Shown piece by piece: positions 1,123-35,847 of a stretch of 64,000 bases of DNA; the first letter of the stretch is position 1; each line of letters starts with the position of its first letter. Origin of the DNA: Escherichia coli (GTDB lineage: Bacteria; Pseudomonadota; Gammaproteobacteria; Enterobacterales; Enterobacteriaceae); assembly GCF_011045215.1 (NCBI RefSeq), contig NZ_CP049201.1; one strand, written 5' to 3'. Below the pieces are notes generated by a model. The model ran no database searches. It had not been told where the DNA came from and saw only the letters and a program-made list of their open reading frames with translations. Both the position numbers and the translations under genes were made by a program.

Positions 1123-1202
1123 AAACCGCGGTGTAAATAACGACAAAAATAAAATTGGCCGCTTCGGTCAGGGCCAACTATTGCCTGAAAAAGGGTAACG
1201 AT

Positions 1203-5530: not shown

Positions 5531-5718
5531 GCCGGATGCGGCGTAAAACGCCTTATCCATCCTACGGTTCTGTGCTCGGGACCTGTAGGCCTGATAAGAC
5601 GCGTCAGCGTCGCATCAGGCACTGAATGCCGGATGCGGCGTGAACGCCTTATCCGGCCTACGGTTCTGTGCTCGGGTCTTGTAGGCCTGATAAGACGCGT
5701 CAGCGTCGCATCAGGCAA
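5531..5718. repeat. REP/BIME cluster
   Basis: Tandem REP palindromes (GCCGGATGCGGCGT... / GCCTGATAAGACGCGTCAGCGTCGCATCAGGC); coordinates approximate. Confidence 0.7.
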
Positions 5719-9837: not shown

Positions 9838-10833
9838 ATGAACGATAACGTTTTGCTCATAGGAGCTTCCGGATTCGTAGGAACCCGACTACTTGAAACG
9901 GCAATTGCTGACTTTAATATCAAGAACCTGGACAAACAGCAGAGCCACTTTTATCCAGAAATCACACAGATTGGCGATGTTCGTGATCAACAGGCACTCG
10001 ACCAGGCGTTAGCCGGTTTTGACACTGTTGTGCTACTGGCAGCGGAACACCGCGATGACGTCAGCCCTACTTCTCTCTATTATGATGTCAATGTTCAGGG
10101 TACCCGCAATGTGCTGGCGGCCATGGAAAAAAATGGCGTTAAAAATATCATCTTTACCAGTTCCGTTGCTGTTTATGGTTTGAACAAACACAACCCTGAC
10201 GAAAACCATCCACACGACCCTTTCAACCACTACGGCAAAAGTAAGTGGCAGGCGGAGGAAGTGCTGCGTGAATGGTATAACAAAGCACCAACAGAACGTT
10301 CATTAACTATCATCCGTCCTACCGTTATCTTCGGTGAACGCAACCGCGGTAACGTCTATAACTTGCTGAAACAGATCGCTGGCGGCAAGTTTATGATGGT
10401 GGGAGCAGGGACTAACTATAAGTCCATGGCTTATGTTGGAAACATTGTTGAGTTTATCAAGTACAAACTGAAGAATGTTGCCGCAGGTTATGAGGTTTAT
10501 AACTACGTTGATAAGCCAGACCTGAACATGAACCAGTTGGTTGCTGAAGTTGAACAAAGCCTGAACAAAAAGATCCCTTCTATGCACTTGCCTTACCCAC
10601 TAGGAATGCTGGGTGGATATTGCTTTGATATCCTGAGCAAAATTACGGGCAAAAAATACGCTGTCAGCTCAGTGCGCGTGAAAAAATTCTGCGCAACAAC
10701 ACAGTTTGACGCAACGAAAGTGCATTCTTCAGGTTTTGTGGCACCGTATACGCTGTCGCAAGGTCTGGATCGAACACTGCAGTATGAATTCGTTCATGCC
10801 AAAAAAGACGACATAACGTTTGTTTCTGAGTAA
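9838..10833 (+). CDS. gne: NAD-dependent epimerase, UDP-N-acetylglucosamine 4-epimerase-like (Gne), 331 aa
   Basis: ORF track; N-terminal GASGFVG Rossmann motif and YGKSK catalytic motif; position between wcaM and galF as in strains carrying gne. Confidence 0.8.
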   Translation: MNDNVLLIGASGFVGTRLLETAIADFNIKNLDKQQSHFYPEITQIGDVRDQQALDQALAGFDTVVLLAAEHRDDVSPTSLYYDVNVQGTRNVLAAMEKNGVKNIIFTSSVAVYGLNKHNPDENHPHDPFNHYGKSKWQAEEVLREWYNKAPTERSLTIIRPTVIFGERNRGNVYNLLKQIAGGKFMMVGAGTNYKSMAYVGNIVEFIKYKLKNVAAGYEVYNYVDKPDLNMNQLVAEVEQSLNKKIPSMHLPYPLGMLGGYCFDILSKITGKKYAVSSVRVKKFCATTQFDATKVHSSGFVAPYTLSQGLDRTLQYEFVHAKKDDITFVSE

Positions 10834-11075: not shown

Positions 11076-11969
11076 ATGACGAATTTAAAAGCAGTTATAC
11101 CGGTAGCAGGTCTTGGGATGCATATGTTGCCTGCCACTAAGGCGATTCCCAAAGAGATGCTACCGATCGTCGACAAGCCAATGATTCAGTACATTGTTGA
11201 CGAGATTGTGGCTGCAGGGATCAAAGAAATCCTCCTGGTAACTCACGCGTCCAAGAACGCAGTCGAAAACCACTTCGACACCTCTTATGAATTAGAATCT
11301 CTCCTTGAACAGCGCGTGAAGCGTCAACTGCTGGCGGAAGTACAATCTATCTGTCCGCCGGGCGTGACCATTATGAACGTGCGTCAGGGTGAACCTTTAG
11401 GTTTAGGCCATTCCATTTTGTGTGCACGACCCGCCATTGGTGACAACCCATTTGTCGTGGTGCTGCCAGACGTTGTGATCGACGACGCCAGTGCCGACCC
11501 GCTGCGCTACAACCTTGCTGCCATGATTGCGCGTTTCAATGAAACGGGCCGTAGCCAGGTGCTGGCAAAACGTATGCCGGGTGACCTTTCTGAATACTCC
11601 GTTATTCAGACCAAAGAGCCGCTGGATCGTGAAGGCAAAGTCAGCCGCATTGTTGAATTTATCGAAAAACCGGATCAGCCGCAGACGCTGGACTCAGACA
11701 TCATGGCCGTTGGTCGCTATGTGCTTTCTGCCGATATTTGGCCGGAACTTGAACGCACTCAACCTGGTGCATGGGGACGTATCCAACTGACTGATGCCAT
11801 TGCTGAACTGGCGAAGAAACAGTCCGTTGATGCCATGCTGATGACTGGTGACAGCTACGACTGCGGTAAAAAAATGGGCTATATGCAGGCGTTTGTGAAG
11901 TATGGACTGCGCAACCTGAAAGAAGGGGCGAAGTTCCGTAAAGGGATTGAGAAGCTGTTAAGCGAATAA
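11076..11969 (+). CDS. galF: UTP-glucose-1-phosphate uridylyltransferase subunit GalF, 297 aa
   Basis: ORF track; conserved GalU/GalF N-terminus; conserved 5' flank of O-antigen locus. Confidence 0.92.
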
Positions 11970-12227
11970 TGAAAATCTGACCGGATGTAACGGTTGATAA
12001 GAAAATTATAACGGCAGTGAAGATTCGTGGTGAAAGTAATTTGTTGCGAATATTCCTGCCGTTGTTTTATATAAACAATCAGAATAACAACGAGTTAGCA
12101 ATAGGATTTTAGTCAAAGTTTTCCAGGATTTTCCTTGTTTCCAGAGCGGATTGGTAAGACAATTAGCGTTTGAATTTTTCGAGTTTAGCGCGAGTAGGTA
12201 ACGCTAGTCACATCGTAGACATGTAAG

Positions 12228-12268
12228 CAGTGCTCTGGTAGCTGTAAAGCCAGGGGCGGTAGCATTGT
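12228..12268 (+). promoter_or_regulatory. JUMPstart element with ops (RfaH-dependent antitermination) site; ops GGCGGTAGCAT at about 12255..12265
   Basis: CAGTGCTCTGGTAGCTGTAAAGCCAGGGGCGGTAGCAT matches the conserved JUMPstart upstream of O-antigen clusters; ops differs from K-12 GGCGGTAGCGT at one position. Confidence 0.7.
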
Positions 12269-12618
12269 TCTTGATATTTTTAAGTATAAAAATGACACAT
12301 AAAAATAAAATAATTAGTTATCGGTATGTTTTTAATTGTGTTATTATTGAAAAATATCACCATTAATTATTTAATGCGATAAAGGCCAAATAAATCACTC
12401 ATTTATTTCTACATAGGATAGGGGACTATCAGATGGGAATTAAATAAAAATCCAAGTGCTAAATATTTCAATCTTAAATTCCATTGTAAAAAGTTTAAGG
12501 GATTTTATTCTAAAAAAGAATTGGATGAATTGAAAGTTATTTTGAGCTTAATTTATTAAACTTGAAGTTTTTTTACTGAGTTTTTCTGAAAAATAATTTA
12601 TTGTTAATGGAGCCATAT

Positions 12619-13638
12619 ATGTCAATTTTAGTTACCGGAGGTTGTGGTTATATAGGTGTCCACACAATTTATACGTTAATTTCTCAGGGCTACGATGTTA
12701 TTGTACTGGATAACCTGACTAACTCATCAATAGAGTCATTAGAGAGAGTCAAGTTAATGACAAATCATAACATACCCTTTTATAAAGGAGATGTGGGGAA
12801 TAAAAAAATATTGGTAGACATATTCAATGAGCATCAAATAAAAGCGGTTATGCATTTTGCAGGCTTGAAATCAGTAAGTGAATCTATAAAAAAACCGATT
12901 GAATATTATTCAAGTAACGTAATGCAAACGTTATCACTAATATCTACAATGATAGAGTATAACGTAAAAAGCTTTATCTTTAGTTCATCTGCTACTGTAT
13001 ATGGTAAACCAAAGTTATGCCCTATAAATGAAACTCATCCTATTGGCAAAACTACAAATCCTTATGGAACATCAAAATTAATGATGGAGTTAATGTTGTC
13101 TGATTTGTGTAATGCATATGATGATTTTAATGTGACAATTTTACGATATTTTAATCCAATTGGTGCTCATGAATCAGGTAATATTGGTGAACATCCAAAC
13201 GGTATACCAAATAACCTATTTCCTTATCTTACAAAAGTTGCTATTGGAGAGTATCCTTATTTAAAAGTGTATGGTTGTGATTACCCAACGTCTGATGGTT
13301 CTGGTGTTCGAGATTATATTCATGTAGTTGATCTTGCTGAAGCACATGTAAAAGCTTTATCAAAAAATTCAGAGTCGACTGGGCTAAAAATTTATAATTT
13401 AGGAACCGGAAAAGGATATTCTGTACTCGAAGTTATAGAAGCTTTTGAAAAGATAACTGGAATCAAAATACCATATAAAATTATGCCTCGAAGGGATGGT
13501 GATGTTGCGGAGTGTTGGTCTGATAGCACGAAGGCAAATGATAAATTAGAATGGAAAGCAAACAGAGAATTATATGACATGATTAGAGACGCTTGGAATT
13601 GGCAATCAAAAAATCCTCATGGTTATGATAATACATGA
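12619..13638 (+). CDS. UDP-glucose/UDP-hexose 4-epimerase (GalE family), 339 aa, low GC
   Basis: ORF 12601..13638; start at ATG 12619 preceded by GGAG; GGCGYIG Rossmann motif, YGKPK-like catalytic region. Confidence 0.8.
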   Translation: MSILVTGGCGYIGVHTIYTLISQGYDVIVLDNLTNSSIESLERVKLMTNHNIPFYKGDVGNKKILVDIFNEHQIKAVMHFAGLKSVSESIKKPIEYYSSNVMQTLSLISTMIEYNVKSFIFSSSATVYGKPKLCPINETHPIGKTTNPYGTSKLMMELMLSDLCNAYDDFNVTILRYFNPIGAHESGNIGEHPNGIPNNLFPYLTKVAIGEYPYLKVYGCDYPTSDGSGVRDYIHVVDLAEAHVKALSKNSESTGLKIYNLGTGKGYSVLEVIEAFEKITGIKIPYKIMPRRDGDVAECWSDSTKANDKLEWKANRELYDMIRDAWNWQSKNPHGYDNT

Positions 13639-14003
13639 TGTTATAGTATATTCAATGAATATAATTTATGCTTTGGAGTAAAAGTTGTCACAGCGTTTTC
13701 TTGCAGAACTAAGATGTTTTTAGCATAATTAGACACAGAATTAAAAATATTATCAGGCCGTATCAGTACATATCTTCAGTATGCACTATCATATATTAAT
13801 ATGAGAAAATATTTGTATTTAAAATATGATGTTCTAATAAGATTAAATTAACTGCCTAGGATATTAAAAGCTAATTTGGACTAGCTTTATTAGATAAGTA
13901 AATCTAACAAAATATTACTATGTCCGATATGTTATACCACTATTAATGACATCATGTAATATTATTTTAATAAACTATTTTTTGATCGCAGAGGTAATTA
14001 TAA

Positions 14004-14399
14004 ATGAGAAGAGTTATCACCTTTGGAACATTCGACGTGTTTCATATTGGACATGTTAATATATTAAAAAGGGCGAAGGAGTTTGGTGATTTGCTGATTG
14101 TGGGAGTTTCATCCGATTCATTAAATTTTTCTAAAAAACAGCGTTATCCAATCTATAGCCAGGAGGAGCGCATTGAGATTATATCCTCACTTAAGTTTGT
14201 AGATCATGTCTTTATAGAAGAATCTTTAGATCTTAAGTTAGAATATATTAGAAAGTATGAGGCAAATTTACTTGTAATGGGAGATGATTGGAAGGGCAGA
14301 TTTGACTGGGTTAAAGATGAGTGCGAAGTTATTTATTTGCCCAGAACACCATCGATATCAACTACCGAGATTATAGAAATTGTCCGGAGAATAAAATGA
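14004..14399 (+). CDS. Glycerol-3-phosphate cytidylyltransferase (TagD-like), 131 aa
   Basis: ORF track; TFGTFDVFHIGH nucleotidyltransferase motif (HxGH) and RTPSISTTEII C-terminal motif. Confidence 0.8.
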   Translation: MRRVITFGTFDVFHIGHVNILKRAKEFGDLLIVGVSSDSLNFSKKQRYPIYSQEERIEIISSLKFVDHVFIEESLDLKLEYIRKYEANLLVMGDDWKGRFDWVKDECEVIYLPRTPSISTTEIIEIVRRIK

Positions 14400-14471
14400 T
14401 AACTCATTTGTTGATAGTGATTTATATTGTATAATTAATATTATGTAAAATGATATATATGGCAAATACAA

Positions 14472-15773
14472 ATGACGTCATGTAATAACTTTAAAAAGTA
14501 TAAAACATTATCTTTATTATCCGTGTGTTTATCCTCTATTCGTGTCTTTTTGGGGCCAATAACATTACTTGTACTAGCCAAAAACCTTTCCACTGAGGAA
14601 CTAGGATTTTATTATGCTTTTTTTTCGTTAACAGCAATGGCACAGTTGCTGGAAGTTGGGATGTCTAGCGTATTGAAACAGTATTATAGCCATTCTTATG
14701 CTATTCATGATATCAGTGAAAAAAATATAAAAATATCGAACTATTTTAACTTTTCAATCTATTGGTATTTAATATTATCAATACTTTTTTTTATATTGGG
14801 AGGGGTGGTGTCATATGTTATGTTTAATGATTATAACGGAATAGTTAACTGGAAATTACCATGGTTTTTTTTGCTTTTTGTTTCATGTACTAATTTATTA
14901 GTATTGCCCTTAAATGCAATGCTTGATGGAACACAAAGGCAACAATTATTGATGAAAGCTAATATTGTTAGTCAGTTAATGATAGCGATATCATTATGGC
15001 TGACAATTTATTTAGGCTTGGGGCTATATTCTCTTGGTCTATCACAATTGGTAGGAATATTATTTTTTTTACTGTCAGTTTTTATATTTAATAAATGTAG
15101 ATTCCAGTTCATAGAAATACATAAAAAAAACTTTTCATTTAAAACAGTATTTAATGAGTTGTGGCCGTTATTGAAAAAAACTAGTATCGTATGGTTTCTT
15201 GGTTATTTCTACTGGAACGGTTTTAATATAATATCATTTAAATATCTTGGTGCAGAGATCGCAGGCTTCGTTGGTATGTCGATGTCAATTATGCGAGCGG
15301 GACAGAATATAGCAATATCTATTTTGAATTCTCAGATGACATTGTATGCAAGCAATATTGCGATGGGAAAGATTGATGAAGCAAGAAGAGTATTTAAGAA
15401 ATATTTTATCATTTCATTTTTGTTATTAATTTCTGGTTACTCAATATTTTATATTTTCTATTATGTTAAGCCTGATTTTTTCTTGTTTAAGAAGGTCCTG
15501 CCCTTAGAACAAATGATTTATGTGTCAATATTTTTTGCCTTTACATTTATAATATCAGGAACTGAAACTTTTATTCGTTGTTTTAAAGTGGAGAAGTTCG
15601 TTATCACTCAGACAATCAATTCAATTTTAACTCCATTCTTATTTGTTTTGGGGCTTAACTTGCATTATCAATATTTTTGTTTACCAATAATATCTGTACT
15701 GATAGTGTCAATCTTAACGTTATATATAAGTCGACGTTTTTACACGGGGTATTCGAATGCAAAAAATACTTAA
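14472..15773 (+). CDS. wzx: O-antigen flippase Wzx (polysaccharide transporter family), 433 aa
   Basis: ORF track; very hydrophobic, multiple predicted TM segments, AT-rich codon usage. Confidence 0.6.
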   Translation: MTSCNNFKKYKTLSLLSVCLSSIRVFLGPITLLVLAKNLSTEELGFYYAFFSLTAMAQLLEVGMSSVLKQYYSHSYAIHDISEKNIKISNYFNFSIYWYLILSILFFILGGVVSYVMFNDYNGIVNWKLPWFFLLFVSCTNLLVLPLNAMLDGTQRQQLLMKANIVSQLMIAISLWLTIYLGLGLYSLGLSQLVGILFFLLSVFIFNKCRFQFIEIHKKNFSFKTVFNELWPLLKKTSIVWFLGYFYWNGFNIISFKYLGAEIAGFVGMSMSIMRAGQNIAISILNSQMTLYASNIAMGKIDEARRVFKKYFIISFLLLISGYSIFYIFYYVKPDFFLFKKVLPLEQMIYVSIFFAFTFIISGTETFIRCFKVEKFVITQTINSILTPFLFVLGLNLHYQYFCLPIISVLIVSILTLYISRRFYTGYSNAKNT

Positions 15774-16929
15774 GTATATAATGAAATTAATGATGTGGAG
15801 TATTTATCCTATCGGTTTTTTAATTAAAAGGGATAAAAGCATTTGGCTTTTCGGTAGTTATAGCGGTTTTACTGATAATAGTCGATATTTATTTGAATCT
15901 ACCACTAAAAAGAATGATGTAAGATGCATTTGGATATCTGATGATATAAAGCTGATAAAAAAAATTAGATGTAAAGGTTATGAGGCATATTACAAATATA
16001 GTGTTAAAGGTATATATTTTTGTTATATTGCAAAGGTGTATATATATTCAAATTATGTATCAACGATAAACTTTTATACATCTGCAGGCGCGGTATTGGT
16101 AAATTTATGGCATGGGACGCCACTTAAAAAAATCGAATATGATATATCTAAATCTCCTTTATTTAATTATTTTAAAGGAGCCTCATTTATAATTAAAATA
16201 TTGATGCCTGAGAAACATAAAAAGTGTAATTTCATTCTTGCTCCGAGTCAATTTGTTTATGATTATTCATTTAAAAGTGCATTTAGGGTGTATGATATGC
16301 AATATGCCATTATTGCTGATCCACCTAGGATATCTAATCTCTTATCAAGAGCCTATCACAAAGTGAATAATGATAAGAATTCAATTAAAAAAACAAAGAA
16401 AACATTTTTATATGCACCAACATGGAGAGATGATCGCTCGGATTTTATAAGTATTTCAGGTTTAAATTTCAACGAAATTAATAATTTTCTATTAAAAAAT
16501 AACGCGTATTTACAAATCAGGTTGCATCCTAATACAACTTTAAATATTGATATGAGTGAAATGGAAAATATTCACATTGTTGATAATTATGAACCAGCTG
16601 AAGATAGTATGCTAAATTCTGATTTTCTCATAACTGATTACTCTTCAATATATTTTGACTACCTCTATCTTAATAGACCTATAATCTTCTTCCCATTTGA
16701 TCTTGAAAAATATACCGCATCGCGTGATTTTTATTTGAGTTATAACGAAGCAACTCCAGGGGTTAAAGTATATAATCAAGGTGAATTAATCCAGGAGATG
16801 GATAACCTATTGAAGGGCATTGACAATTGGATGAACTATCGAAAGGAGCTTGCTGAAAAATTCTGTTCGCTCGAAAGACGTAACGATGATTATATCATAA
16901 AAAAAATTAAAAAAGGTGTATCTGAATGA
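15757..16929 (+). CDS. CDP-glycerol glycerophosphotransferase (TagB/TagF family), 390 aa
   Basis: ORF track; YAPTWRDD motif typical of TagF-type enzymes; adjacent to TagD-like gene. Confidence 0.7.
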   Translation: MQKILKYIMKLMMWSIYPIGFLIKRDKSIWLFGSYSGFTDNSRYLFESTTKKNDVRCIWISDDIKLIKKIRCKGYEAYYKYSVKGIYFCYIAKVYIYSNYVSTINFYTSAGAVLVNLWHGTPLKKIEYDISKSPLFNYFKGASFIIKILMPEKHKKCNFILAPSQFVYDYSFKSAFRVYDMQYAIIADPPRISNLLSRAYHKVNNDKNSIKKTKKTFLYAPTWRDDRSDFISISGLNFNEINNFLLKNNAYLQIRLHPNTTLNIDMSEMENIHIVDNYEPAEDSMLNSDFLITDYSSIYFDYLYLNRPIIFFPFDLEKYTASRDFYLSYNEATPGVKVYNQGELIQEMDNLLKGIDNWMNYRKELAEKFCSLERRNDDYIIKKIKKGVSE

Positions 16930-17732
16930 ATCTTGGTAAAATTATAAATTATATAGAGTCTAAGGTTATTAGTATAAATTTTGATTTCAATCATTTAGCT
17001 GGCTATTTAAGTCGTGATGAGCGAGATAAAATAACCTTAAAACATCTAAGCAGTATTATTGATAGAAGAAAAAAACATCCATCTGTTTCTGCTATATACA
17101 GAGTGAAAAATGGAGCTCAATTTATTGAACTATCTATTCTTTCAATAGCTGCATTTTGTCGTGAAATAATTATTGTAGACAATAATTCAACAGATGATAC
17201 TTTACTAATAGTAGAACGTCTTAAAAGCGAACTTCAGGAAATATGTGAAATTAAAATCTATCAGTATACTAGTCAGGTCGCTTTGGCGGGTAAGAATTAT
17301 AATGATGAAATCAGAAAATATCCTGAGCGGTCATTGGCAAAATATTATAACTATGCTTTTTCATTGGCAACATCGGAATTCTTAATGAAGTGTGATGCTC
17401 ATTATATATTCACACCTGCGGGTATAGATAGTATACAACGAAAATTAATTTCAAATCATAAGTCAGTTGATGTTATATGTTATCGTGGCACCGAAGTATT
17501 TGGAGCCATGTTAGATTGTGAACCCTATCTAATACGGAAAAATAGTTTTAAATATTACGACACTCAATATTTTGAACGTTTGACATTAAACAAGAAGAGA
17601 AGTTTTATTCAAAAAATTAAAGGGAGAATTTCATCACCTTGCTTTATACATGTTAAACGTTTGAGTTATGTTAAGTCAGTTCATCTATGTGAAATAAACC
17701 CTGTGGAGTATATGTATAAAAATGATAATTAA
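16926..17732 (+). CDS. Putative glycosyltransferase (GT-A fold-like), 268 aa
   Basis: ORF track; IIIVDNNSTDDT-like segment resembling GT2 DXD region; assignment weak. Confidence 0.45.
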   Translation: MNLGKIINYIESKVISINFDFNHLAGYLSRDERDKITLKHLSSIIDRRKKHPSVSAIYRVKNGAQFIELSILSIAAFCREIIIVDNNSTDDTLLIVERLKSELQEICEIKIYQYTSQVALAGKNYNDEIRKYPERSLAKYYNYAFSLATSEFLMKCDAHYIFTPAGIDSIQRKLISNHKSVDVICYRGTEVFGAMLDCEPYLIRKNSFKYYDTQYFERLTLNKKRSFIQKIKGRISSPCFIHVKRLSYVKSVHLCEINPVEYMYKNDN

Positions 17733-18951
17733 ATTACATAATATTTGCGTAACTGGGAAGAATGATAATCATGACGGGTCTTTTCGCCTACAAATATACT
17801 ATTTCCTATGTATTTTAATATCTATTCTATTTTTCAGTGCATACCCTTTGGTATCGTTACCTCTTATAGCTCTTTCAAGTCCATTTGTTAATAACTATGC
17901 AAGATGGACTATGTCACTATTAATGATTTTTTATTTTATTTTATTATACTCATCTATTACGCCTTTTTCAGACATAGCAGAGTATATGCTTATCTATAGA
18001 GGAGTAACCGATGTTGATATATTTAGTTTTGGTAGGTTTGGTGGTGGAATCGAGATCTTCATATTAGCTCTCATGCGCTTGGTGTATTTTATATCCGATG
18101 GCAATGAATATCTTTTTTTATTTTTTTGCTTTACTATTATTCAAATATTTCTTTTTGTATTTTGTTATCGTGTTAATCGTCGTTTATCATGTTTATATTT
18201 TTTAGTATTTAATCTTTCATATGCTTATTATTCTTTTAATGCATATTTTTTACGAAGCATGTTATCCGCGGTTTTTTTAATTAATGCCTTTTTGTTTATT
18301 TCTAAAAAAAAGTATGTGTATTATTTTTTTGCAATTATATCGCATTTGTCATCCGTCCTATATATAGGAGTATGGGAATATTTAAGGGCAAGAAATAAAA
18401 AATTAAAAATATGGGTTGCTAGTATGGCAACTGTAACTATTATATGTTGTTTTATTTTTTTGCGAGATAGGATTGAATTTTATTTATTTAAAAGCTCTGG
18501 AAATTCGATGGGGTATGTACAAGTTGTAACCATTGCTTTTAATTATATTTTGTGTTTGTTGTTATTATTCTTTTCAAATGCAAGAAAAGAATTGTCAACT
18601 CAAAGAATAATATTGTTTTTGACTTTTTTCTTTATCTTGGCCTTGGTAACTTATAAAATACCACAAAATTTTGGGATAAGAATCTCTATTTTGCTTTACG
18701 CACTATCACCGTTTTTCTTGTATCCACTTCTTACCTCCTGCAATGTAACAATATTAAATAAGATCAAATCGTTGTCTCTTTATATGATTGTTAACTGTTG
18801 CTTTCTCTTTGTTGTGTTATATAAGGGCGATGATATTTCAAATCACATGCGTTCAAATCCATTAGATACTAGTTTTATTGATTTATTAATAAAGGACATA
18901 GATTATTTTGTTAAAGGATATTATCCAGTAATATATTCTAGAGACGAATAA
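17722..18951 (+). CDS. wzy: O-antigen polymerase Wzy, 409 aa
   Basis: ORF track; extremely hydrophobic polytopic protein with rare codons inside O-antigen cluster. Confidence 0.55.
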   Translation: MIIKLHNICVTGKNDNHDGSFRLQIYYFLCILISILFFSAYPLVSLPLIALSSPFVNNYARWTMSLLMIFYFILLYSSITPFSDIAEYMLIYRGVTDVDIFSFGRFGGGIEIFILALMRLVYFISDGNEYLFLFFCFTIIQIFLFVFCYRVNRRLSCLYFLVFNLSYAYYSFNAYFLRSMLSAVFLINAFLFISKKKYVYYFFAIISHLSSVLYIGVWEYLRARNKKLKIWVASMATVTIICCFIFLRDRIEFYLFKSSGNSMGYVQVVTIAFNYILCLLLLFFSNARKELSTQRIILFLTFFFILALVTYKIPQNFGIRISILLYALSPFFLYPLLTSCNVTILNKIKSLSLYMIVNCCFLFVVLYKGDDISNHMRSNPLDTSFIDLLIKDIDYFVKGYYPVIYSRDE

Positions 18952-19238
18952 GGGACATTGTTTAGATGTGCAAGGTGGAAATGTATCAAAGAAAATTGTA
19001 GTTACTACAGTAACAGTTACTTTGTAAAGTATATTTCGGTAAAACCTGCAATAACCAAGGGCGCTAAACTCCCTAACAACTCCGCTAATGGAATTAGAAT
19101 TAGAGAGTGACGAGTTTAAATATGAGAGTTTAGGGTAATAGAACAAATTTTTAAGTTTATAGAGTAAGAACAGATTAAGTTAAGTTTGCTTATTTTATAA
19201 TAAGCTCTTTCTTAAACCATATATAGTATTATCTACAA

Positions 19239-19961
19239 TTGAGTGATATCAAATTGAATATTGAGATCGGTTTATCAGCGCTGAATTCAGGAATTTATAA
19301 AATTAAATTTCGTAATGATTATAATTATCTTATTATTCATCAGATTACTGATGAATGTGATTACTCTGATTATGTGGCATCTTTCCCTGAAAATGTTAGA
19401 TACATATCTTCATATGAGTCTGGGTTGTCCAAAAGTCGAAATATGGCCATTGAAAATGCAAAATACGATTATCTTTGGTTAATGGATGATGATATGGAAA
19501 TAGATGATGCGGCTTGGGATTATCTGACGAAATTTATTAGTGATTATAAAAATAGTCCTTTGCTGGTTGTTTCTCATTCATTGGCAAAAAAGTATAATAA
19601 TGAAAAAGAGAGGATTAAAAGATTGAATCCTATAACTGCTGCGGGAATTTGTTCTGTAGATATGATATTAAAAATTTCAGCACTGGACGGTATTAGATTT
19701 AACTCAGATTTTGGGTTAGGAGCTAAATATCCTTCCGGTGAGGAATATATTTTTGCATGTGATTTGATGAGAGCTGGAAAAAAAATATATAAATCTAATA
19801 AAATTTGCTCGAATCATCCTGACACGACTTCTAGTGATAAAACATATCCAAATAAAGACGCTTTTAGTACGAAGAAGAAAATGTTTAAAGTCGCAAATGG
19901 GAAATACTTAGGGAGCATTTTGTATATTGCTTTTGTTGTCAAAAAATTACTATATAAATAA
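19239..19961 (+). CDS. Glycosyltransferase family 2-like, about 240 aa (start uncertain; ORF begins at TTG)
   Basis: ORF track; SKSRNMAIENA...LWLMDDDMEID resembles GT2 DXD region. Confidence 0.5.
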   Translation: MSDIKLNIEIGLSALNSGIYKIKFRNDYNYLIIHQITDECDYSDYVASFPENVRYISSYESGLSKSRNMAIENAKYDYLWLMDDDMEIDDAAWDYLTKFISDYKNSPLLVVSHSLAKKYNNEKERIKRLNPITAAGICSVDMILKISALDGIRFNSDFGLGAKYPSGEEYIFACDLMRAGKKIYKSNKICSNHPDTTSSDKTYPNKDAFSTKKKMFKVANGKYLGSILYIAFVVKKLLYK

Positions 19962-20005
19962 TAATTTACATAATTTTATTTTTATATAATCTATTTATTG
20001 TCTAG

Positions 20006-21052
20006 ATGCCTATGAAAAAAGTATATATTTTTATTGATGATATATCCCGTTCCGGTGGCACAGAACGAGTTGCGACATTTCTCTCTAATCAAATGTTTTT
20101 ATCCGGATTTTCAGTCACACTAATATCATTAGCATTAGAAGGAGGGAATACATACTATCCGCTGCAACCCGGAGTCAAGTTAGAGGTTTTAAGTGAATCA
20201 ACATTATACGAATTGTTTCTTTTTTTAAGAAAAAATTCATGTGATGTGTTGATTTCTGTTTCCATGGGTAGTTTATCGTTTAAGCTTGCATGTTTACATT
20301 TTCTATTACGATTAAAATCTCGTCTTATTTTAAGTGAGCATGTGGCTTTTGAATCCTCATCAAAGTTCATTCGTTCTCTAAAATGGTTAAGCTATCAATT
20401 CGCTGATGATCTTGTATTATTGACAAAGCATGATTATAAATTGCTTAAGTCAAATGTTAGGGCTCATACTCACGTTATCAATAATGCTAGTGGTTTCGAA
20501 CAATTATCTGAATCTGTTCTTATTCAAAAGCAAAAGATAGTATTAGCAGTGGGACGTTTAACTTATCAGAAGGGGTTTGATAGGTTAATTCGTATTTGGG
20601 CTTCCATATCGGACAATCACGGTTGGGTTTTACGGATCGTAGGGGATGGAGAATTGCGTTCAGAACTACAAAAAATGATTGTTGACCTGAATGTTACACA
20701 TAATGTCCAACTTATACCAGCAACAAAATGTATAGAACAAGAATATACTAATGCAGCTATATTAGCTATGACTTCTCGCTATGAAGGACTACCATTGGTT
20801 CTTATAGAGGCTAAATCTTTTGGATTAGCAGCAGTCGCTTTTGATTGTAAAACAGGTCCTGCTGAAATTATTCATCACAAAAAAGATGGGTTCTTGATTA
20901 CTGAAGATAATGAACCTGAATTTTCATATCGTCTTCAGTCTTTAATGATCGATGATGTTTATCGAAACAAAATACAAAGTATGGCCTTAAGAAATGCTAA
21001 TGATTATTCTGTTGAAAAAATAAGTCGGCAGTGGTTGGAGTTAATATCATGA
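20006..21052 (+). CDS. Glycosyltransferase family 4 (group 1), 348 aa
   Basis: ORF track; VGRLTYQKGFD and EGLPLVLIEAKSFGLAAVAFD motifs (GT4 EX7E region). Confidence 0.75.
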   Translation: MPMKKVYIFIDDISRSGGTERVATFLSNQMFLSGFSVTLISLALEGGNTYYPLQPGVKLEVLSESTLYELFLFLRKNSCDVLISVSMGSLSFKLACLHFLLRLKSRLILSEHVAFESSSKFIRSLKWLSYQFADDLVLLTKHDYKLLKSNVRAHTHVINNASGFEQLSESVLIQKQKIVLAVGRLTYQKGFDRLIRIWASISDNHGWVLRIVGDGELRSELQKMIVDLNVTHNVQLIPATKCIEQEYTNAAILAMTSRYEGLPLVLIEAKSFGLAAVAFDCKTGPAEIIHHKKDGFLITEDNEPEFSYRLQSLMIDDVYRNKIQSMALRNANDYSVEKISRQWLELIS

Positions 21053-21837
21053 GTAGTTATGAAACAGTATCTATAATCATGCCTACGTTTAATGCTGCAT
21101 CTTATATTTCGTATAGCATCATTTCTGTAATTGAACAATCATATAATGATTGGCATTTATATATAATAGATGATGGTTCAACTGACAATACCGCACATGA
21201 AATATCTAATTTTACCGATCTGCGAATAACATATGTAATGCTTCCTATCAATAGTGGAGTTGCAAATGCTAGAAATATAGGTATTAAAATGGCAAAAGGG
21301 AAATTTATTGCGTTTCTTGATAGTGATGACATTTGGGAAAAAGAAAAATTATCCTTGCAAATCCCTTTACTCGAAAAAGGATATGATGTAGTTTGTTCAA
21401 ATTATGCCATTTTTAAAAATGAACCAAAAAAAATAATCGGTTCTCGAACTGCACCACAACAGATCACCTATTCGCGTTTGTTACGCGGTAATTGTATCGG
21501 CAATTTAACGGGGATTTATAACCGAGAACGACTAGGTAAATGCTTACAGGAAGAATGTGGACATGAAGACTATCTAATGTGGTTACAGTTGGTAAAGCTT
21601 TCTGGTAGCGCTTATTGCATACAGAAAAATTTAGCCCGGTATCGAGTTACGGAACATTCAGTATCATCAAATAAATTAAAAGCAGCATTTTGGCAATGGA
21701 ATATATATCGTAAAAAACTCAAGCTTAATATTTTGAGCAGTATATATTACTGGTGTAATTATTCTTTTTACGCATTTATGCACATGTTAAAAATGAAGTT
21801 TCATGTGAATAAAAGTAATCTAATATATAAGAGATAA
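21049..21837 (+). CDS. Glycosyltransferase family 2, 262 aa
   Basis: ORF 21031..21837; start at ATG 21049 after GGAG; VSIIMPTFN and FLDSDD motifs. Confidence 0.8.
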   Translation: MSSYETVSIIMPTFNAASYISYSIISVIEQSYNDWHLYIIDDGSTDNTAHEISNFTDLRITYVMLPINSGVANARNIGIKMAKGKFIAFLDSDDIWEKEKLSLQIPLLEKGYDVVCSNYAIFKNEPKKIIGSRTAPQQITYSRLLRGNCIGNLTGIYNRERLGKCLQEECGHEDYLMWLQLVKLSGSAYCIQKNLARYRVTEHSVSSNKLKAAFWQWNIYRKKLKLNILSSIYYWCNYSFYAFMHMLKMKFHVNKSNLIYKR

Positions 21838-33160: not shown

Positions 33161-33208
33161 TTTCTTATTCCTCTTTAAACCTGTCTGAACCGTTATCAAC
33201 CGCGCAAT

Positions 33209-33241
33209 AAAAAAGCCCCCGGAAGGTGATCTTCCGGGGGC
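33209..33241 (-). terminator. his attenuator terminator hairpin
   Basis: On minus strand GCCCCCGGAAGATCACCTTCCGGGGGC followed by U-run, between hisL and hisG. Confidence 0.8.
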
Positions 33242-33305
33242 TTTCTCATGCGTTCATGCACCACTGGAAGATCTGAATGTCTTCCAGCACACATCGCCTG
33301 AAAGA

Positions 33306-33356
33306 CTAGTCAGGATGATGGTGATGATGGTGGTGTTTAAATTGAACGCGTGTCAT
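33306..33356 (-). CDS. hisL: his operon leader peptide, 16 aa (MTRVQFKHHHHHHHPD)
   Basis: Minus-strand ATG followed by seven consecutive His codons, upstream of attenuator. Confidence 0.9.
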   Translation of the reverse strand: MTRVQFKHHHHHHHPD

Positions 33357-35581: not shown

Positions 35582-35847
35582 AGAAAAATTATTATGACAA
35601 GCCTCTCATTCTCTTGTCATTTCCCCCCCATTTAGGCACAATGCGCCGCTGTCAAAAAATGACTAAAAACCGACGTTTCATCAGCGTCGGTTATTTTTTG
35701 CTTCAAACCAATCATTCATACCAAGAGGCCGGGCTTCGTACCGGATAGATATTTACTAAAAATCGACAGTTGTTGTCGCTGAGGAATCCAAAAAAATGGG
35801 GCAATTTTTTGCTTACGCGACGGTTATCACCGTAAAGGAGAATGACC

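Follow-up and report, generated by a model that had tools for sequence, protein, structure and literature searches.

The window (the whole 64,000-nucleotide, or 64 kb, stretch of Escherichia coli DNA that was analysed) contains an O-antigen locus whose genes were named from the RefSeq annotation of CFSAN061772 (NZ_CP042893), which is 100% identical over 11970-12640. The gene order runs from the colanic-acid genes through a GlcNAc-P-P-Und 4-epimerase gene and galF to the O81 operon, followed by gnd and ugd. The operon, which is the presumed cargo of RfaH antitermination, includes galE (12619-13638), a cytidylyltransferase-like gene, wzx(O81), a CDP-glycerol glycerophosphotransferase gene, glycosyltransferase genes and wzy(O81), and has a G+C content of 30% as compared to 47.7% in the whole window. 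Between galF and the operon, and on the plus strand like both of them, lies a JUMPstart element with its ops site, placed in the untranslated 5' leader of the polysaccharide cluster:

11076-11969, plus strand: galF, which is conserved and flanks the O-antigen locus upstream (open reading frame and RefSeq annotation)
11970-12227, plus strand: galF-JUMPstart intergenic region, conserved between serogroups and the presumed promoter region
12228-12266, plus strand: the 39-nt JUMPstart element (Rfam RF01707, full model length)
12235-12253, plus strand: JUMPstart stem-loop of 5 bp, CUGGU (12235-12239) paired with GCCAG (12249-12253) around a 9-nt loop (cmscan structure line)
12255-12266, plus strand: ops 12-mer GGCGGTAGCATT, with A10 at 12264 and T12 at 12266; positions 1-9 and 11 are canonical
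12256-12263, plus strand: ops bases G2-C9 of the non-template DNA hairpin (PMC11001881; PMC5995543), with G5 and T6 of the loop at 12259-12260; all eight bases are unchanged
12267-12618, plus strand: untranslated leader of 352 nt, 22.7% G+C, O81-specific (composition and similarity search)
12619-21837, plus strand: the O81 O-antigen operon, about 9.2 kb, 30% G+C (open reading frames, RefSeq annotation and composition)

Hobbs and Reeves reportedly described, in 1994, a JUMPstart element upstream of E. coli O-antigen gene clusters. Here the letters at 12228-12268 of the plus strand, read directly from the window, are CAGTGCTCTGGTAGCTGTAAAGCCAGGGGCGGTAGCATTGT, and 12228-12266 match the Rfam JUMPstart model RF01707 over positions 1-38 of 38, with 55.2 bits (gathering score 35; E = 3e-11 in a search of 3 kb and 6.3e-10 for the whole 64 kb window). 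The cmscan alignment flags no non-standard pairs in the stem, which lies 5' of the ops core. The element starts 258 nt 3' of galF and has the orientation of the O-antigen operon; a place 3' of galF and 5' of the O-antigen cluster is the textbook one for a JUMPstart (PMC4732683). Since galF precedes it and an operon with genes annotated as O81 wzx and wzy follows it, it is the JUMPstart that belongs to the O-antigen cluster of E. coli O81, in its canonical place; the preliminary description, which had placed a JUMPstart with an ops site at 12228-12268, is confirmed in this by both the Rfam score and the position. Other E. coli O-antigen clusters have the same 39-nt element with the same stem-loop in the same position, and bases 1-36 of the O81 element are those of other serogroups; only the last bases differ, the O81 element ending in ...GGTAGCATT and those of other serogroups in ...GGTAGCGTG. 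DebRoy 2016 (PMC4732683) treats the JUMPstart as no more than a landmark and primer site, and O81 is absent from its main text; a search of titles and abstracts for the O81 antigen gave nothing relevant.

In a single-sequence fold the region 12228-12300 was no more stable than shuffled sequence (z = -0.52), as expected given that the stem is so short. A terminator scan gave a match overlapping the ops site (12251-12273, then ATATTTTTAA), which we rejected: its stem consists mostly of G-U pairs and does not form in the minimum-energy fold, and the region has the same shuffled-like stability (z = -0.52). The inverted repeat at 12251-12273 is probably due to chance.

Downstream of the element, the O81 leader is unusually long, at 352 nt as compared to 20-50 nt in the O22 (about 22 nt), O80, O93 and MS6192 loci; the leader of the fifth of the five other loci checked, the O-antigen locus of Combat11I9, is about 729 nt. 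DNA similar to 12267-12618 was found in E. coli only in 10 O81 genomes, and this leader contains no open reading frame of more than 33 aa and no Rfam match at E <= 1 besides the JUMPstart. The long hly leader of strain CFT073 has been linked to an immediate drop of polymerase occupancy without RfaH (PMC9765446). A promoter scan of 11900-12700 found three consensus sites, none of them well placed, against 3.4 expected from shuffled sequence; for the O-antigen transcription unit of CFT073, the predicted start lies 67 nt 5' of ops (PMC9765446 Data set S2A).

The canonical ops, as found at the E. coli rfaQ, rfb/wzx and wza sites, reads GGCGGTAGCGTG, and is both an RfaH loading site and a consensus pause site. 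The O81 site, likewise on the non-template strand of an operon leader, shares G1-C9 and T11 with it and departs from it at two positions, G10A and G12T; with the following base it reads GGCGGTAGCATTG. The invariant core G1-G8 (GGCGGTAG) is present, and C9 (12255-12263 being GGCGGTAGC) is able to pair with G2. T11, the pause position, is at 12265, but the base at 12266 is T instead of the G of ops position 12, and with G13 at 12267 the TG dinucleotide is displaced from positions 11-12 to 12-13 (12266-12267). At the same place where other E. coli O-antigen loci read GGCGGTAGCGTGTGTT, the window has GGCGGTAGCATTGTT. The preliminary description had reported the A in place of G at position 10, and the coordinate check agrees, giving A at 12264 and not the canonical CGT. 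Its statement that the first eight bases and the terminal T are retained stands insofar as G1-C9 and T11 are intact, but it missed the second change, G12T.

The sequence GGCGGTAGCAT occurs at 12255-12265 on the plus strand as the sole GGCGGTAGNNT of the 64 kb window, which has no second ops site. By chance, 0.22 matches per window are expected to an 11-mer that is free at two positions, and on that ground alone the element might be fortuitous, or else the variant an error of assembly; the probability of this is negligible in view of the full-length JUMPstart match (E = 6e-10) at the canonical position and of the identical sequence in 10 independent complete genomes. Error and chance are excluded as explanations of the O81 ops.

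What the two changes may mean depends on the roles of the individual ops bases, which have been worked out in published studies. Crystal and cryo-EM work shows that the only bases specifically contacted by RfaH are G5 and T6, which lie in the loop of a hairpin of the non-template strand (PMC5995543; PMC11001881). The C3:G8 pairing of this hairpin is architectural (PMC5995543), and in cryo-EM structures of the ops-paused complex G2-C9 are kept in hairpin form by three pairs, G2:C9, C3:G8 and the Saenger pair G4:A7 (PMC11001881). G10 and T11 stack on W183 of the RNA polymerase beta subunit (PMC5995543; PMC11001881), and the polymerase takes up the flipped G12 in its CRE pocket (PMC11001881); G12 helps to cause the U11 pause. 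The O81 site thus has A for the polymerase-stacking G10, and T for the CRE-pocket G12 that supplies the G+1 of the pause; mapped onto these structures, both changes fall outside the bases read by RfaH, A10 at the polymerase-stacking position and T12 at the pause G+1 position. The preliminary description is not right in placing the change within the part of ops that RfaH contacts, the base-specific contacts being confined to G5 and T6 (PMC5995543; PMC11001881).

Substitutions at positions 10 and 12 have been assayed as G10C and G12C, each singly (PMC5995543). In lux reporters the RfaH effect was 35.9-fold for the wild type, 18.6-fold for G10C and 20.0-fold for G12C, and fell to 4.7-4.9-fold for G5A, G8C and T11G (PMC5995543 Figure 2 source data). 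With G12C, lux output under RfaH stimulation fell to a quarter (25%) of that of the wild type, and in vitro this substitution abolished the U11 pause and kept RfaH recruitment (PMC5995543). The consensus elemental pause is G-10 Y-1 G+1, as cited in PMC5995543; for a pause at U11 the O81 site offers G2 and T11 at the first two positions, but T12 at +1. G12T is the change with more mechanistic weight than G10A, as the pause-inducing T11-G12 loses its G through it. Zuber et al. noted that the validated E. coli targets known to them all have TG at 11-12, and that pausing is needed for RfaH loading in vivo (PMC5995543).

The occurrence of these alleles was followed in 5,426 complete E. coli genomes with exact 28-mer queries, for which a megablast match requires the variant bases; the counts cover two upstream contexts, TAAAG and TTAAG, and leave out JUMPstarts with other upstream variants. 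In the upstream context of O81 (TAAAG), GGCGGTAGCATT was found in 11 of the 5,426 genomes, namely 10 O81 genomes and one kps-like capsule locus that adjoins gspM/yghD in isolate A3176. All 10 O81 genomes, of human, horse, pig, chicken and cheese origin, carry one and the same 12-mer allele. In the same upstream context the canonical allele is present in 2,307 genomes and alleles without G12, mostly CGTA and CGTT, in 167. Across the two upstream contexts, 1,186 of the 5,426 genomes carry one of 42 non-canonical alleles. G12 was absent from 54 of 60 non-canonical rows in a spread sample, and extrapolation from these 60 rows gives a rough estimate of about 20% of complete E. coli genomes with at least one JUMPstart-linked ops site that lacks G12. 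The operons that follow such sites could be identified by annotation and sequence, with ops bases 9-12 as given:

kpsM leader of CFT073: CATA
kpsM leader of strain 144: CGTA
group-1 capsule wzi leader of SCEC020007: CGTC
group-1 capsule wzi leader of CFS3246: CGTT
group-1 capsule wzi leader of LR-58-1: CTTC
O-antigen locus of O22: CATT, with the identical 12-mer
O-antigen locus of O93: CGTT
O-antigen locus of Combat11I9: CGTA

The O22 JUMPstart (strain RM10809-3) and the A3176 capsule locus thus share the 12-mer GGCGGTAGCATT with O81, but in both it is followed by C, whereas O81 has G; the upstream half also differs between the two O-antigen loci, being TTAAG in O22 and TAAAG in O81. In a cross-species scan with one genome per species, about 80 JUMPstart-like sequences were among the 120 matching stretches listed, and in these ops positions 9-12 read CGTG (55), CATG (6), CGTA (5), CATA (4), CGTT (3) and CGTC (2), with A10 in 10 and G12 absent in 14. 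Variation at ops positions 10 and 12 is ordinary, although CATT itself, as a combination, is a minor allele.

RfaH-bound sites of the same kind are known from ChIP-seq in CFT073. The kpsM ops GGCGGTAGCATA, a leader sequence that we confirmed in a CFT073 genome, has the strongest RfaH peak in the genome (70.9-fold enrichment), the hlyC ops GGCGGTAGCATG is bound, and the c1882 ops GGCGGTAGCGTA, with A12, is a further target (PMC9765446 Data set S2A). Both the kpsM and the hlyC sites have C9-A10-T11 as in O81, and kpsM likewise lacks G12; at position 12, kpsM has A and hlyC has G, in contrast to the T of O81, and the operons concerned serve capsule export (kpsM) and haemolysin (hlyC) instead of O-antigen synthesis. 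The binding of hlyC, kpsM and c1882 indicates that RfaH can load efficiently at sites with A10 and at sites with a base other than G at position 12. In CFT073, GGCGGTAGCGTT (CGTT) sites gave no RfaH signal; all of them are inside coding regions, where RfaH bound no ops-like site (PMC9765446).

Given the RfaH-bound kpsM and c1882 sites (both A12), and at least 167 E. coli genomes without G12 in the same JUMPstart context, G at ops position 12 is not strictly a defining feature. The same comparison with other RfaH-dependent sites, which the preliminary description had proposed, turned up both A10 and non-G12 alleles at sites bound by RfaH, and the three CFT073 sites answer in the negative its question of whether RfaH fails to tolerate the substitution. 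Nor is A10 an unusual departure, as it is found in CFT073 hlyC and kpsM and in those 10 listed JUMPstarts. The earlier expectation that RfaH recruitment is probably preserved is upheld, as the hairpin read by RfaH is intact and A10 and non-G12 sites are bound in CFT073. On this combined evidence, we consider the site to be very probably a functional RfaH-loading JUMPstart/ops of the O81 O-antigen operon, at which RfaH recruitment is very probably preserved; RfaH dependence and the pause behaviour of the site are predictions.

The published pause data allow a less favourable reading, in which the U11 pause without G12 is so low that RfaH loads inefficiently in vivo, and O81 O-antigen expression is then low, or reliant on the long leader or a strong promoter. 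Points in its favour are the elimination of the U11 pause by G12C in vitro, the fall in lux output to 25% and in RfaH effect from 35.9-fold to 20.0-fold with that substitution, and the argument that pausing matters for loading (all PMC5995543); furthermore, the published substitutions are single, and O81 has the double change A10 and T12. However, CFT073 kpsM combines A10 with A12 and yet has the strongest RfaH ChIP peak there (PMC9765446), non-G12 alleles precede many capsule and O-antigen operons, and diverse O81 lineages are all fixed for the allele, while their antigen, being serologically defined, is expressed. We regard such a weakened site as quite improbable.

Somewhat less improbable, though still unlikely, is a shift of the main pause from U11 to U12, with RfaH recruited one nucleotide out of register. 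The sequence can be read as GGCGGTAG-CAT-TG, with TG at 12-13, and two Aeromonas JUMPstarts among those listed also have three bases before TG (CCATGG and CTATGG); moreover, RfaH can join complexes that have been stopped at C9, G10 or U11, so that the exact register is not essential (PMC5995543). A pause at U12 would have T12 at -1 and G13 at +1 as in the consensus, but C3 at -10, so that G-10 Y-1 G+1 is again matched only in part, and the C that follows CATT in O22 and in the capsule locus suggests that G13 of O81 may be incidental.

For the preferred reading, a functional RfaH-loading site, we propose the following course of events. Transcription would start in the galF-JUMPstart spacer, and with the polymerase at ops the canonical non-template bases G2-C9 (12256-12263) would form the small hairpin in which G5 and T6 are exposed. 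RfaH would bind G5/T6, become activated and stay on the polymerase, and the modified polymerase would resist Rho termination and H-NS-promoted pausing over the 352-nt AT-rich leader and the operon; AT-rich, H-NS-bound and Rho-sensitive templates are the kind that is counter-silenced by RfaH (PMC9765446). A10 would replace a purine that merely stacks on T11 and beta W183. T12 would replace the CRE-pocket G that is also the pause G+1, and may leave the U11 pause somewhat weaker or partly shifted to U12, the partial shift being predicted because T12-G13 recreates the Y-1 G+1 step.

The O81 JUMPstart/ops is of a known kind and a minor natural allele, and like alleles are already documented at RfaH-bound sites. 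For the O81 O-antigen operon this would provide the expected RfaH-type antitermination signal, and it corrects the base reading of the site: the hairpin read by RfaH is intact, and the changes are at polymerase-contact and pause bases. More generally, G12 is far from universal at natural JUMPstart-linked ops sites (kpsM, group-1 wzi leaders, O22, O93), and natural alleles, including GGCGGTAGCATT(G), could be used to gauge how far RfaH loading in vivo depends on the CRE-pocket G. Whether ops position 12 and the TG register serve as a natural tuning knob of pause strength, RfaH loading or expression appears doubtful; if they did, the A12, C12 and T12 alleles of capsule and some O-antigen operons would set different pause strengths, the CAT-TG of O81 would move the pause to U12, and the published claim of TG at 11-12 in validated E. 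coli targets would have to be qualified.

An alignment of six serogroups points to how the two changes may have arisen. The sequences are nearly identical from the galF side up to ops C9, and also at T11; they begin to diverge at ops positions 10 and 12, and from position 13 on the divergence is complete. Because the shared sequence ends at ops 10 and 12, the recombination boundary abuts the RfaH site on its 3' side, and the edge of the serogroup-specific cassette coincides with that of ops. Most simply, G10A and G12T are neutral or near-neutral polymorphisms at the O-antigen cassette recombination junction that travelled with the cassette.

Some further observations concern the surroundings of the site and the database searches. 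The GlcNAc-P-P-undecaprenol 4-epimerase gene (9838-10833) lies between wcaM and galF, and is also present in the O22 strain; being upstream of the JUMPstart, it is outside the RfaH-controlled operon. Within the operon there are two non-coding gaps, 13639-14003 (365 nt) and 18952-19238 (287 nt). The first contains a CRISPR-DR6-like match (13831-13870) which, with 25.7 bits against 39 and E = 0.023, is below the gathering score and was taken as chance, as was a SNORD100 match at 12697-12771, far below its gathering score. A 6.9 kb contig assigned to 'Arthrobacter sp. GMC3' (NZ_PJIO01000031.1) has an enterobacterial-type JUMPstart, TAGTGAACTGGTAGCTGTTAAGCCAGGGGCGGTAGCGTTG, and probably represents contamination in an actinobacterial assembly. 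The other Rfam matches of the window above gathering score are all expected for this chromosomal region:

992-1062 and 5588-5658, minus strand: two naRNA4 (REP-type) elements within the colanic-acid region
1149-1198, plus strand: algC RNA motif, upstream of cpsG
33207-33330, minus strand: His operon leader
35627-35701, plus strand: sRNA STnc240
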